Source: a virus
Lineage: Duplodnaviria > Heunggongvirae > Uroviricota > Caudoviricetes
Direction: 5' to 3' (one strand)
IMG/VR virus record: IMGVR_UViG_2636415611_000002
DNA length: 9,774 nucleotides
Of this stretch, positions 1,221-8,312 are shown in pieces (position 1 is the stretch's first letter; every line of letters begins with the position of its first letter). The translations under genes and the position numbers were made by a program. The notes beneath the pieces are model-generated. The model did not search any database. It had not been told where the DNA came from and worked only from the letters and a program-made list of their open reading frames with translations.

Positions 1221-1235
1221 GGTAATGACTCCAAC

Positions 1236-1739
1236 TTACTGATAGTGTTTTATGTTCAGATAATGCCCGATGACCTTGTCATGCAGCTCCACCGATTTTG
1301 AGAACGACAGTGACTTCCGTCCCAGCCTTGCCAGATGTTGTCTCAGATTCAGATTATGTCGCTCAATGCGCTGAGTGTAACGCTTGCTGATAACGTGCAG
1401 CTTTCCCTTCAGGCGTGATTCATACAGCGGCCAGCCATCCGTCATCCATACCACGACCTCAAAGGCCGACAGCAGGCTCAGAAGACGCTCCAGTGTGGCC
1501 AGAGTGCGTTCACCGAAGACGTGCGCCACAACCGTCCTCCGTATCCTGTCATACGCGTAAAACAGCCAGCGCTGACGTGATTTAGCACCGACGTAGCCCC
1601 ACTGTTCGTCCATTTCAGCGCAGACAATCACATCACTGCCCGGTTGTATGCGCGAGGTTACCGACTGCGGCCTGAGTTTTTTAAGTGACGTAAAACCGTG
1701 TTGAGGCCAACGCCCATAATGCGTGCACTGGCGCGACAT
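1236..1739 (-). CDS. insB: IS1 InsB reading frame (transposase expressed as InsAB' by -1 frameshift)
   Basis: Translation ends ...[15 protein letters not shown], characteristic of IS1 InsB; overlaps insA around the A6C slippery site. Confidence 0.95.
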
Positions 1740-1933
1740 CCGACGCCATTCATGGCCATATCAATGATTTTCTGGTGCGTACCGGGCTGAGAGGCGGTGT
1801 AAGTGAACTGTAGTTGCCATGTTTTACGGCAATGAGAGCAGAGATAGCGCTGATGTCCGGCAGTGCTTTTGCCGTTACGCACCACGCCTTCAGTAGCGGA
1901 GCAGGAAGGACATCTGATGGAAATGGAAGCCAC
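1658..1933 (-). CDS. insA: IS1 InsA (91 aa)
   Basis: Translation [39 protein letters not shown]... is the IS1 InsA zinc-finger/HTH protein; GTG start as in IS1. Confidence 0.95.
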
Positions 1934-2009
1934 GCAAGCACCTTAAAATCACCATCATACACTAAATCAGTAAGTTGGCAGCATTACCGAATTTTATAAC
2001 CCAGATTCG

Positions 2010-2034
2010 GGCACCAGAAATGGTGCCTTTTTTA
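2010..2034 (+). terminator. Rho-independent terminator upstream of lom
   Basis: Stem GGCACCA (2010..2016) / TGGTGCC (2021..2027), loop GAAA, followed by TTTTTTATT. Confidence 0.6.
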
Positions 2035-2057
2035 TTGCAGAAAAGCGAGAGGTAATT

Positions 2058-2657
2058 ATGCGTAAAGTTTGTGCAGCCATTTTGTCCGCAGCCATCTGTC
2101 TGGCTGTATCCGGTGCGCCTGCATGGGCGTCTGAACATCAGTCCACGCTGAGCGCCGGGTATCTTCAGCCCCATACTGATATGCCAGGCAGCGATGACCT
2201 GAAGGGCATTAACGTGAAATACCGTTATGAGTTTACGGACACGTTGGGGCTGGTGACGTCATTCAGCTATGCCAACGCTGAAGATGAGCAAAAAACGCAT
2301 TACAGCGATACCCGCTGGCATGAGGATTCCGTGCGTAACCGCTGGTTCAGCGTGATGGCGGGGCCGTCTGTGCGCGTGAATGAATGGTTCAGCGCGTATG
2401 CGATGGCGGGCGTGGCTTACAGCCGTGTGTCGACCTTCTCCGGGGATTATCTCCGCGTAACTGACAACAAGGGGAAAACGCACGATGTGCTGACCGGGAG
2501 TGATGACAACCGCCACAGCAACACGTCTCTGGCGTGGGGGGCTGGCGTGCAGTTTAACCCGACCGAATCCGTGGCCATTGACCTTGCTTATGAAGGTTCC
2601 GGCAGTGGCGACTGGCGCACTGACGGTTTCATCGTGGGTGTCGGTTATAAGTTCTGA
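2058..2657 (+). CDS. lom: Lom-like outer-membrane beta-barrel protein (Ail/Lom/OmpX family), 199 aa
   Basis: Translation MRKVCAAILSAAICLAVSGAPAWASEHQSTLSAGYL...GFIVGVGYKF closely resembles phage lambda Lom, with signal peptide and C-terminal aromatic residue; SD GAGAGG 6 nt upstream of the ATG. Confidence 0.9.
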   Translation: MRKVCAAILSAAICLAVSGAPAWASEHQSTLSAGYLQPHTDMPGSDDLKGINVKYRYEFTDTLGLVTSFSYANAEDEQKTHYSDTRWHEDSVRNRWFSVMAGPSVRVNEWFSAYAMAGVAYSRVSTFSGDYLRVTDNKGKTHDVLTGSDDNRHSNTSLAWGAGVQFNPTESVAIDLAYEGSGSGDWRTDGFIVGVGYKF

Positions 2658-2683
2658 TTAGCCAGGTAACACAGTGTTATGAC

Positions 2684-2710
2684 AGCCCGCTGGTTCAGGC
2701 GGGCTTTTTG
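2684..2710 (+). terminator. Rho-independent terminator downstream of lom
   Basis: Stem AGCCCGC (2684..2690) / GCGGGCT (2699..2705), 8-nt loop, then TTTTTG; lies 27 nt after the lom stop. Confidence 0.6.
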
Positions 2711-2720
2711 TGGGGTGAAT

Positions 2721-6812: not shown

Positions 6813-6837
6813 AGCACGTCTTAAGCAAGAACGTGCT
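6813..6837 (-). terminator. Candidate hairpin/terminator between the methyltransferase gene and the ipaH promoter
   Basis: 7-bp stem AGCACGT/ACGTGCT with an 11-nt loop, 11 nt after the methyltransferase stop; followed on the minus strand by a moderately T-rich ACGGTTTCCTTTACGATTT. Confidence 0.3.
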
Positions 6838-6848
6838 GCGGTTGGATG

Positions 6849-7517
6849 CTATTTTTTCCCTGAAGCAGAAAACATTACTACAGTACCTTGAACCTTGGTT
6901 TTAACATTCTCGAAATGCTCTGAGAGTATATGTGTTAAGCCTTCTTCGGAATCTTTTGTGTTTGAAAAGATGCCTTTCTGATTGTAAATGCGCATCAGTT
7001 TTTGACCGAAGCTATTGTGCACAACTCCATCGCCAAGAATTGTGGCTCCGTATAGAGTTCCATCATCAGTTAAGGCCTGCGCCGCATTGCGTATTACACA
7101 GCTTTTTGTAGATATATTTCCAGGCAGGCAGTGAAGAAGGTAAAACATGGAAATGGAATCAAATTGACCATGTAACGCCGCGGGATAAGTTTCAAAAACA
7201 TCATGGCTAATTTTATGTTTAATTTTTGATTCCCCAGCCCTTGTAGATGCCGCGTTCAGGCTAGCTTCGTTCAAATCCATTAAAGATATCAGACTACTCT
7301 CAGGTACGTGAGTAAGGTAAAACCCAGTTCCAACACCAATATCCAGATGGTTGTTACCTAAATGTTCCAGAAAGTGTGGAAGAAGGTGTTCCTTTGTAGG
7401 ACATCCCCATGCAAGCCGATTTGATACTCCCAAAACCCACCAGTCATAAAGCTTTAGGGTAATTGGTGTGTAAATTTTAGCCCCATCATCTGTGTTTTTT
7501 TTCATTAATTTCACCAT
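6849..7517 (-). CDS. Class I SAM-dependent methyltransferase (Rossmann fold), 218-222 aa; probable start at 7505 (MKKNTDD...) with a possible extension to 7517
   Basis: Motif I LDIGVGTGF at residues 58-66, acidic residue after the next strand (MDLNE), motif II-like FDSISMFYLLHCLP; ATG at 7503..7505 preceded by GGTGA at 5-nt spacing, whereas the ATG at 7517 has no SD; AT-rich like the ipaH LRR region. Confidence 0.7.
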   Translation of the reverse strand: MVKLMKKNTDDGAKIYTPITLKLYDWWVLGVSNRLAWGCPTKEHLLPHFLEHLGNNHLDIGVGTGFYLTHVPESSLISLMDLNEASLNAASTRAGESKIKHKISHDVFETYPAALHGQFDSISMFYLLHCLPGNISTKSCVIRNAAQALTDDGTLYGATILGDGVVHNSFGQKLMRIYNQKGIFSNTKDSEEGLTHILSEHFENVKTKVQGTVVMFSASGKK

Positions 7518-7526
7518 GTTATAGTT

Positions 7527-7535
7527 TTATTTGTG
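7527..7535. repeat. Left copy of the 9-bp target-site duplication (TTATTTGTG) of IS1 copy 2
   Basis: Identical 9-mer TTATTTGTG directly abuts both ends of the IS1 (7527..7535 and 8304..8312). Confidence 0.9.
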
Positions 7536-7590
7536 GGTAATGCTGCCAACTTACTGATTTAGTGTATGATGGTGATTTTAAGGTGCTTGC

Positions 7591-7866
7591 GTGGCTTCCA
7601 TTTCCATCAGATGTCCTTCCTGCTCCGCTACTGAAGGCGTGGTGCGTAACGGCAAAAGCACTGCCGGACATCAGCGCTATCTCTGCTCTCATTGCCGTAA
7701 AACATGGCAACTACAGTTCACTTACACCGCCTCTCAGCCCGGTACGCACCAGAAAATCATTGATATGGCCATGAATGGCGTCGGATGTCGCGCCAGTGCA
7801 CGCATTATGGGCGTTGGCCTCAACACGGTTTTACGTCACTTAAAAAACTCAGGCCGCAGTCGGTAA
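7591..7866 (+). CDS. insA: IS1 InsA (91 aa)
   Basis: Translation identical to InsA of copy 1. Confidence 0.95.
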
Positions 7867-8288
7867 CCTCGCGCATACAACCGGGCAGTGATGTGATTGT
7901 CTGCGCTGAAATGGACGAACAGTGGGGCTACGTCGGTGCTAAATCACGTCAGCGCTGGCTGTTTTACGCGTATGACAGGATACGGAGGACGGTTGTGGCG
8001 CACGTCTTCGGTGAACGCACTCTGGCCACACTGGAGCGTCTTCTGAGCCTGCTGTCGGCCTTTGAGGTCGTGGTATGGATGACGGATGGCTGGCCGCTGT
8101 ATGAATCACGCCTGAAGGGAAAGCTGCACGTTATCAGCAAGCGTTACACTCAGCGCATTGAGCGACATAATCTGAATCTGAGACAACATCTGGCAAGGCT
8201 GGGACGGAAGTCACTGTCGTTCTCAAAATCGGTGGGGCTGCATGACAAGGTCATCGGGCATTATCTGAACATAAAACACTATCAGTAA
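7785..8288 (+). CDS. insB: IS1 InsB reading frame (transposase expressed as InsAB' by -1 frameshift)
   Basis: Same as copy 1 apart from one residue near the C-terminus (G instead of E). Confidence 0.95.
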
Positions 8289-8303
8289 GTTGGAGTCATT
8301 ACC

Positions 8304-8312
8304 TTATTTGTG
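8304..8312. repeat. Right copy of the 9-bp target-site duplication (TTATTTGTG) of IS1 copy 2
   Basis: Exact direct repeat of 7527..7535. Confidence 0.9.

Follow-up and report, generated by a model that had tools for sequence, protein, structure and literature searches.

Organization of the locus

The window, by which we mean the whole stretch of 9,774 nucleotides that was analysed, holds two IS1 copies on either side of a lambdoid prophage arm that carries ipaH (Table 1). The copies, 768 bp each, are inverted relative to each other and match at 767 of 768 positions in a pairwise comparison, the sole mismatch setting position 1288 in copy 1 against position 8236 in copy 2; a preliminary description of this DNA had put the difference at one nucleotide or more, and it is exactly one. 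This single missense base changes residue 151 of InsB (E151G; Glu in copy 1, Gly in copy 2). The insA and insB' reading frames are intact in both copies, with the Pfam domains Zn_ribbon_InsA, HTH_Tnp_IS1 and DDE_Tnp_IS1, and the A6C frameshift motif AAAAAAC lies at IS position 307 (checked in copy 2), outside the mismatch. The terminal inverted repeats of both copies are 23 to 24 nt long with 87 to 88% complementarity. The elements thus have the features that define the IS1 family (a length of ~768 bp, imperfect terminal repeats of ~23 bp, InsA/InsB' with an A6C site), and they resemble the IS1 of E. coli and Shigella down to terminal repeats starting GGTAATG. The 9-bp target duplication of the family is present at copy 2 and missing at copy 1. 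Copy 1 is in keeping with the family's known role in rearrangements, and otherwise nothing in either copy was unusual.

Table 1. Features of the window, with coordinates counted from its first nucleotide
Feature	Position	Strand	Remarks
IS3-family element end, last 15-18 nt	1..18		reverse complement TGAACCGCCCCGGGAATG
Fragment X, orphan lambdoid Q-to-holin piece	16..1220	-	opposite orientation to lom
DUF1737 remnant in fragment X	75-278	-	
iraM in fragment X	524-859	+	
DUF3927 stump in fragment X	1140..1220	-	C-terminal 26 codons and stop; PF13064
IS1 copy 1	1221..1988	-	IRR left, IRL right; insA 1658-1933, insB' 1236-1739
Ancestral J-lom spacer	1989..2057	+	from alignment with EIEC L002
lom (Ail/Lom outer membrane protein)	2058..2657	+	Pfam PF06316, E = 1.9e-128
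stf, side tail fibre	2721..4136	+	Pfam phage_tail_N; 471 aa in relatives' calls
Module R, 4.27-kb repeat	3267..7535		stf C-terminal part, DUF4376 gene, ipaH, methyltransferase gene
DUF4376 protein gene	4087..4710	+	Pfam PF14301; position of a tail fibre assembly gene
ipaH (ipaHe in EIEC annotation)	4890..6533	-	intact, 547 aa
Class I SAM-dependent methyltransferase gene	6849..7517	-	
9-bp target duplication TTATTTGTG, left copy	7527..7535		
IS1 copy 2	7536..8303	+	IRL left; insA 7591-7866, insB' 7785-8288
9-bp target duplication TTATTTGTG, right copy	8304..8312		
Tail-fibre-assembly gene remnant region, locus-B version	8304..8727	+	ORF 8351-8536, Caudo_TAP
Partial IS911 (IS3 family)	8772..9774	-	runs off the window; rve domains (Pfam)

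The arm has lom, stf (longest open reading frame from 2679) and the assembly genes in lambda order (Pfam Ail_Lom and phage_tail_N), as in a lambdoid right arm. The ipaH product contains an LRR (LRR_TTSS) and a NEL domain (E = 6e-77, Pfam) and has the same sequence as the protein that VL40-type genomes list as IpaHe (RefSeq annotation). With an N-terminal LRR and a C-terminal NEL E3 ubiquitin ligase domain, it belongs by its domains to the IpaH family and is a predicted type III effector.

We compared the window with the S. boydii Sb227 chromosome and found 99.95% identity over window positions 16 to 9774 (CP000036.1, 1,039,446-1,049,204). Sb227 has both IS1 copies, the 9-bp duplication, fragment X, lom-stf-ipaH-methyltransferase and IS911 in the identical arrangement; it differs by five point changes, by a methyltransferase gene called truncated (143 aa) where that of the window is intact, and by lacking the extra IS3-family element whose end forms window positions 1 to 15.

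Copy 2 is a simple insertion

The 9-bp duplication around copy 2 reflects a simple IS1 insertion. A perfect match of 9-bp flanks at fixed positions has a chance of 4^-9 (~4e-6), and the empty site with a single TTATTTGTG occurs in EIEC as well as in seven or more S. boydii-type genomes in which copy 1 is present already (L002, L012 and others are among the empty-site examples). The preliminary description had read copy 2 in this way, and the empty sites in relatives bear it out. The element adjoins the methyltransferase gene, lying upstream of it with 18 bp to the start codon. Because the duplication around copy 2 is intact, an odd number of inversions between copy 1 and copy 2 since its insertion is excluded; to that extent the earlier statement that the flanks exclude an inversion after the arrival of copy 2 holds.

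Inverted IS1 pairs can form composite transposons, Tn1681 being an example, and two intact IS1 copies around a virulence cargo could be read as such an element, inserted as a unit with its 5.5 kb of cargo. We give this reading a vanishingly small chance. The outer flanks, AGCCAGCAC at copy 1 and TTATTTGTG at copy 2, differ, and the outer ends of the pair therefore lack the shared duplication of a composite transposon, as the preliminary description had argued; the duplication at copy 2 is its own and spans its inner and outer sides. Moreover, many genomes have no copy 2 beside their copy 1 and cargo, and the cargo sits in its ancestral prophage position next to the former J. Across the ~20 places read, the cargo was always in a prophage, copy 2 was absent from most mlrA-linked loci, and nowhere had the pair transposed as one unit. 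The likeness to Tn9 and Tn1681 thus lies in two IS1 copies bracketing a cargo, inverted as in Tn1681, while the window pair differs in having no common duplication, no sign of unit movement and copies of separate origin.

Copy 1 is a rearrangement joint at the end of J

Next to AGCCAGCAC on its left, outer side, copy 1 has GAATTTTAT on its right. We searched for direct repeats of 7 to 14 bp, imperfect ones allowed, within ~25 to 30 bp around either end and found none above 75% identity, which disposes of the hidden or imperfect repeat for which the preliminary description had left room; the flanks are unrelated. To the right, lom starts 69 bp from copy 1, as had been noted. In the alignment with EIEC L002, the J coding sequence ends at L002 position 6002 (window 1990), its TGA stop codon overlaps window positions 1989-1990 (GA), and the right end of copy 1 falls inside that stop codon. 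The sequence GAATTTTAT (1989-1997) is presumably the target of the original IS1 insertion.

To the left, the gene stump reported earlier is indeed there, and it belongs to DUF3927 and is not a tail gene. Copy 1 has cut away the 17 N-terminal codons (the intact E. coli 042 gene maps to 1140-1271), and gene calls in L026, L029 and others give the stump as a PF13064 product of 26 aa. Fragment X, which contains it, is 99.7% identical to a region of an E. coli 042 prophage with the order holin(-), DUF1737(-), iraM(+), DUF3927(-), tRNAs(-), Q(-), and its late genes point leftward, against the direction of lom and stf. A joint reciprocal to that at copy 1 would set ...CGATTAGCTGAATTTTAT at the J end, or ...GGATAATGTCAGTGCTGGCT on the DUF3927 N-terminal side, against IS1. 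The order hok/DUF968, Q, DUF3927-iraM-DUF1737, holin is common to all nine X-bearing intact prophages listed.

Apart from the missing J, the right arm of the window is collinear with that of an intact EIEC prophage. The EIEC ipaHe prophage (for example in CFSAN029787 and VL40) shares the integration site mlrA/btsS and the right arm J-lom-stf-DUF4376-ipaHe-methyltransferase-tfa'-dinI at 99.2 to 99.3% identity, but it retains everything between int and J and lacks IS1 at both sites, whereas in the window IS600, X and IS1 stand in place of this interior and the arm past the methyltransferase gene has been exchanged. In Sb227, IS600 directly follows mlrA and the terminal 188 bp of int, which are 99.8% identical to EIEC, and fragment X comes next; ~40 kb of the EIEC-type prophage between mlrA and btsS, from int to J, have given way to IS600, fragment X (1.2 to 1.3 kb) and IS1. 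The IS600 has matching 3-bp flanks (TGC/TGC, a 1-in-64 chance), which could suggest a simple IS600 insertion; its flanks are otherwise unrelated.

The preliminary description had ascribed copy 1 to an IS1-mediated deletion or fusion that removed the upstream tail genes. A rearrangement joint does lie where J is expected, and that part stands. The one-step deletion does not: it would be a single IS1-mediated adjacent deletion, or one between direct IS1 copies, fusing an upstream stump to lom in a collinear prophage. Such an event would account for the loss of J with all upstream structural genes and for a copy 1 without duplication, and a true case is known from the same prophage in EIEC O121 strain 201805972 (terL' - IS1A - 'J - lom, collinear). 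However, a deletion would keep the flanks collinear, and here the left flank is a reversed Q-to-holin fragment, so the model is contradicted. Furthermore, fragment X is cut by IS600 beside the int 3' end and mlrA, and none of the three EIEC versions of the mlrA-btsS prophage contains it; their order is Q, four tRNAs, holin. We regard a one-step deletion as highly improbable.

Among the S. boydii-type genomes listed, at least 10, L033 alone lacks the joint seen at copy 1. A search of all complete E. coli genomes for copy-1 joints gave no record covering at least 80% of the flank-IS1-flank query, and a search via the exact Lom protein turned up no J-IS1-lom precursor, every hit having an intact J-lom, a J-IS600-lom or the present joint. 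Other IS1 insertions near this site are independent events at other positions: one lies inside the J 3' end of SW070910 (duplication GTTGTTGTG), and others were seen in EC19 and ST131 strain 4224. In L022, L024 and L033 these IS1 copies have changed outer flanks and therefore recombine with other IS1 copies.

The two copies come from different prophages

Module R is present at two prophage loci, mlrA-btsS (locus A) and beside yodB-zinT (locus B), and its copies differ by no more than ~0.3% among S. boydii-type genomes. Locus-B matches to the window begin at 3267 and extend to the copy-2 site at 7535, continuing through IS1 where it is present. At locus B (L020), copy 2 and its duplication stand beside R, and on the other side of R lie Mu-like tail genes and another version of the stf N-terminal part. 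Past copy 2, window positions 8304-8727 show 1 mismatch to locus-B flanks (L020, L016, L029) versus 7 to 8 to locus-A flanks. Furthermore, Sb227 and CP162080.1 each carry a window-type product (L029 and L016/L026) together with the reciprocal product without IS1 (L021 and L015). The pair was thus not built up in one place: copy 1 stems from the mlrA-btsS prophage and copy 2 from the zinT-side prophage, and they were joined in R. These comparisons indicate that an exchange of arms by homologous recombination inside module R united the two IS1 copies.

Among single-nucleotide differences in R, only that at 7518 separates most locus-A from locus-B copies, and the recombinant L015 has the B-type allele; the crossover point cannot be mapped because R is nearly identical between the loci. 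Sb227 has its two R copies in inverted orientation; in CP162080.1 and in the parental-type CP055124.1 and CP160647.1 they are direct. Given this varying orientation, one simple inversion is insufficient for all genomes and extra steps are needed.

Locus B also carries hok, a 92-aa open reading frame and a truncated DUF968 gene that abuts an IS600. This IS600 is 99.7% identical to the one beside X and has the orientation predicted for an IS600 x IS600 inversion. The donor of fragment X is nevertheless not proven, because the locus-B early region is ~94% identical to the E. coli 042 prophage and X is 99.7% identical to it.

Origin of the inverted pair

Copy 1 probably started as an insertion at the extreme end of J and is now a joint between unrelated flanks. 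To reach this state, we infer, IS copies in two prophages most likely underwent homologous recombination. Two nested inversions, IS1 x IS1 and IS600 x IS600, may have swapped X and the int-to-J block between the prophages, after which the transferred block would have been deleted from the donor. Copy 2 transposed into the ipaH module of locus B, and a later crossover in R exchanged the right arms, leaving it opposite copy 1. The pair is therefore an accidental juxtaposition, not a transposon moved as a unit. A scan of the genome_contigs and metagenome_contigs sets for the reciprocal joints (J end with IS1; DUF3927 N-terminal part with IS1) gave no matches, and the control, the window's own joint, was likewise unmatched in genome_contigs, its only test set, which lacks these genomes; the missing matches thus do not count against the route.

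Alternatively, a single prophage might have been rearranged. In this scenario iraM-DUF3927 lay between the prophage's own Q and holin, the J-end IS1 inverted the whole late region, either by replicative transposition into DUF3927 or by recombination with another IS1 lying there in inverse orientation, and IS600 then deleted int to holin. IS1 makes intramolecular inversions and deletions, and the exact X-IS1-lom joint with its polarity would follow from two events only; lambda-like structural modules do lie downstream of X elsewhere (L006, L008, L011, L013, L014). Yet both surviving prophage ends are 99.2 to 99.8% identical to the EIEC prophage, X was missing from 3/3 EIEC versions examined, with four tRNA genes in its stead, and a suitable donor with an IS600-truncated early region sits at locus B. 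We consider a single-prophage origin unlikely. Very probably, the window represents what is left of the right-hand end of a lambdoid prophage with ipaH, located between mlrA and btsS on an S. boydii chromosome near that of Sb227 and heavily remodelled by IS elements. In it, copy 2 arose by ordinary transposition at locus B, copy 1 is a joint that may stem from IS x IS recombination between two prophages, and the later exchange in R made the pair.

Consequences for the segment between the copies

The inverted pair is a plausible substrate for inversion of the 5.5-kb segment, as had been proposed; the inverted isomer was not seen among the S. boydii-type genomes compared. One could also imagine module R as a portable homology cassette which, with the flanking IS1, would drive repeated shuffling of prophage arms, possible inversion or mobilisation of the ipaH cargo, and variation in ipaH context or expression from strain to strain; judged from the sequences, which show the exchange of arms itself, we think there is a slim chance that it acts in this way. 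If it did, the position of copy 2 just ahead of the methyltransferase gene could be one way in which expression is altered.

One clean IS1 insertion and one rearrangement joint are ordinary for IS-laden Shigella genomes, and the biology is already known; neither the mechanism nor any of the elements is new. Shigella genomes are known to undergo IS-mediated inversion at high rates (PMC8072062). The region illustrates clearly how Shigella prophages are taken apart and rearranged by IS1, IS600 and duplicated ipaH modules, and how the lack of a target duplication at an IS copy need not signify a simple deletion; its importance beyond bookkeeping is little. We propose to label it a prophage remnant with a hybrid IS1 joint. 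For typing within S. boydii, the arm exchange and both IS1 junctions mark lineages.

IS3-family sequences at the window ends

Positions 1-15, missing in Sb227, were also unmatched in E. coli 042, L012 and L029. The terminal motif of positions 1-18 also opens an IS3-family element at position 17043 of L026, and by this terminal repeat the element is putatively IS629/IS1203-like. At the other end, the IS911 part is 99.6 to 99.7% identical to elements annotated 'IS3-like element IS911 family transposase'.

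Structure of the IS1 pair and origin of copy 2

Direct comparison of the two IS1 elements, which lie in inverted orientation and are 768 bp each, showed that they are identical at 767 of 768 positions, in keeping with the preliminary description, according to which they differ by at least one nucleotide. Owing to the sole mismatch (window 1288 versus 8236), InsB residue 151 is Glu in copy 1 but Gly in copy 2. Both copies have insA and insB' ORFs with IS1 Pfam domains; a check of copy 2 showed the A6C frameshift site, which the mismatch does not touch. Exact protein matches put the window in Shigella boydii-type chromosomes, and essentially the same sequence is part of a genome published in 2005. 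The best match of the window was CP000036.1 (99.95% identity over window 16-9774), with both IS1 copies in place. The strain of that accession is named S. boydii Sb227 serotype 4 (PMC4374849).

Coordinates of features in the window
Feature	Position	Strand	Remark
IS3-family element, terminal 15-18 nt	1-18		reverse complement TGAACCGCCCCGGGAATG
Fragment X	16-1220		orphan lambdoid Q-to-holin piece
DUF3927 remnant	1140-1220	minus	last 26 codons, cut by copy 1
IS1 copy 1	1221-1988	minus	flanks AGCCAGCAC and GAATTTTAT
Module R	3267-7535		4.27 kb: stf C-terminal part, DUF4376 gene, ipaH, methyltransferase gene
Methyltransferase gene	6849-7517		intact, 222 aa
Start codon to copy 2	7518-7535		18 bp
Direct repeat of copy 2	7527-7535, 8304-8312		TTATTTGTG, perfect
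IS1 copy 2	7536-8303	plus
Right flank of copy 2	8304-8727		424 bp, common to both loci
Segment before IS911	8728-8771		44 bp
IS911	from 8772		right end of window

An unbroken site with a single TTATTTGTG was found in enteroinvasive E. coli (EIEC; CFSAN029787 and VL40) and in many S. boydii-type genomes. Copy 2 is thus a simple transposition, as had been proposed from its perfect 9-bp repeat. Inserted 18 bp in front of the methyltransferase start codon, it probably cuts the gene off from its own promoter. For the same gene, the call in Sb227 covers just 143 aa (locus L029, 14129-14560), and ipaHe, intact in the window, is annotated as frameshifted in EIEC CFSAN029787.

Copy 1 as a rearrangement joint

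Next, we compared copy 1 with the intact lambdoid prophage that EIEC carries between mlrA and btsS (int ... Q - four tRNAs - holin ... J - lom - stf - DUF4376 - ipaHe - methyltransferase - tfa' - dinI), which was 99.2 to 99.3% identical to window 1989-7535. The J stop codon (TGA) of EIEC ends at the equivalent of window 1990, so the edge of copy 1 falls between its T and GA; this alignment indicates that IS1 first inserted at the very 3' end of J, where it presumably duplicated GAATTTTAT. No direct repeat of 7 to 14 bp with more than 75% identity was found near the ends of copy 1, imperfect repeats being allowed. The flanks are unrelated, as first described, and the 69-bp spacing between copy 1 and the lom start was confirmed, as were the other statements made on the sequence itself.

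The preliminary description had also read copy 1 as the scar of an IS1-mediated deletion or fusion that took away the upstream tail genes. The scar stands, but a simple deletion does not: the late genes of X run leftward whereas lom and stf run rightward, which excludes a deletion in a collinear prophage. The polarity of the genes points instead to a joint of the inversion type or one between prophages. A genuine IS1 deletion that keeps collinearity (terL' - IS1A - 'J - lom) is seen in the same prophage of EIEC O121 strain 201805972 (locus L036, NZ_CP119441.1 3018096-3020507), where it reaches from the large terminase gene to the final 282 nt of J. That deletion is independent, a parallel decay of the ipaHe prophage by another route. 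The O121 prophage also holds two IS911 insertions.

Fragment X was 99.7% identical to the Q-holin interval of the E. coli 042 prophage, whose order is holin(-), DUF1737(-), iraM(+), DUF3927(-), tRNAs(-), Q(-). The Sb227 version of X measures 1,296 bp. The IS600 on its left borders the final 188 bp of the prophage integrase gene, beyond which comes mlrA; this integrase-mlrA stretch is 99.8% identical to EIEC. Both extremities of an EIEC-type prophage therefore survive, and the int-to-J interior (~40 kb) is replaced by IS600 - X - IS1. X was absent from all three versions of the EIEC mlrA-btsS prophage examined, so it is most likely foreign to that prophage. At window 1-15, the IS3-family tip displaces sequence that runs ~90 bp further in Sb227 and E. 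coli 042, so the source strain and Sb227 differ by one further IS event, at the left boundary of X.

The likely donor of X is the second ipaH prophage of the S. boydii genomes, which lies beside yodB-zinT (locus B) and reads tfa'' - IS1 (copy 2) - methyltransferase - ipaH - DUF4376 - stf' - Mu-like tail genes - IS600 - truncated DUF968 - 92-aa ORF - hok. In 9 of 9 intact X-bearing prophages among the matches listed, hok and DUF968 precede Q, after which come DUF3927 - iraM - DUF1737 - holin; exactly this stretch after hok/DUF968 is missing at locus B, beside an IS600. That IS600 is 99.7% identical to the IS600 beside X, and their relative orientation is that expected for an IS600 x IS600 inversion. 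Two nested inversions (IS1 x IS1 and IS600 x IS600) would exchange X for int-to-J across the two prophages and put the backbone back in order; if locus B then underwent a deletion, the transferred block would be lost. We infer this route as one consistent with every joint observed, but donor and route are not proven: scans of sequence sets that do not include these genomes returned neither reciprocal joint, and the locus-B early region is only ~94% identical to the 042 prophage. The identical 3-bp flanks (TGC/TGC) of the Sb227 IS600 (L029 5938-5943 and 7202-7207), which are otherwise unrelated, are the single detail that is not easily squared with recombination as the sole origin of that joint; the match is probably coincidental (chance 1 in 64). 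In the main alternative, an inversion within the prophage followed by an IS600 deletion would yield the X-IS1-lom joint in just two events, but X must then once have belonged to the mlrA prophage.

Assembly of the pair by exchange in module R

Module R occurs at both the mlrA locus (locus A) and locus B, and the retrieved loci differ in which IS1 copy accompanies it.

Arrangements around module R in the retrieved loci
Type	Order	Loci
1 (mlrA locus)	copy 1 - lom - stf - R - empty site - tfa' - dinI - btsS	L012/L023, L017/L027, L030, L031, L032, L034
1, variant	right arm as type 1; different flank left of copy 1	L033
2 (locus B)	with copy 2	L020; L022 and L024 with altered outer flanks
3	copy 1 - lom - stf - R - copy 2 - tfa'' - IS911 ... 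zinT	window, Sb227 (L029), CP162080.1 (L016/L026)
Reciprocal, without IS1	btsS - dinI - tfa' - R - stf' - Mu-like genes	L021, L015 (in Sb227 and CP162080.1)

The 424-bp right flank of copy 2 had 1 mismatch to locus-B flanks versus 7 to 8 to locus-A flanks. These comparisons indicate that the pair was assembled by homologous exchange inside R, not by two insertions at one locus, and that it arose as a side effect when two ipaH modules recombined. The crossover cannot be mapped because the R copies of S. boydii-type genomes differ by only ~0.1 to 0.3%. R differs just as little between the two loci, whereas the adjoining 424 bp, also shared by them, diverge by ~1.9%; this difference suggests that gene conversion or repeated exchange homogenises R and ends at the IS1 site. 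Moreover, the two R copies are inverted in Sb227 and direct in CP162080.1 and others, so additional rearrangements occurred. The 44 bp between the end of the tfa'-dinI homology and IS911 match neither locus A nor IS911.

A composite transposon was rejected, as it had been from the window alone: the outer flanks of the pair differ from each other, and the IS1-cargo-IS1 unit was not seen outside the prophage context in the loci examined. Inversion of the 5.5-kb segment between the copies is plausible; the IS1 flank table of all retrieved loci held no inverted isomer among the three sequences with both copies. In L022, L024 and L033, the same IS1 positions have different outer flanks, indicating that copies 1 and 2 recombine with other IS1 elements. 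The finding is real. For Shigella there is already good documentation of IS1 expansion, of decaying prophages, of ipaH genes that sit within prophage remnants and of inversions that IS elements cause frequently (PMC8072062).

Further loci carry related arms. In L028 (CP162048.1 1613474-1634889), mlrA - IS600 - X - IS1 - lom - stf - DUF4376 continues into a different ipaH gene, of 608 aa, and another two copies of IS1 next to pgl and an aconitase gene, a context that indicates that the same left arm was joined to a third right arm. Another lambdoid prophage of Sb227 (CP000036.1 1605496-1616095) has an intact J and an identical Lom and, after them, a different 583-aa ipaH and an IS1; several near-identical J-lom-stf arms thus coexist as extra substrates for homologous recombination.
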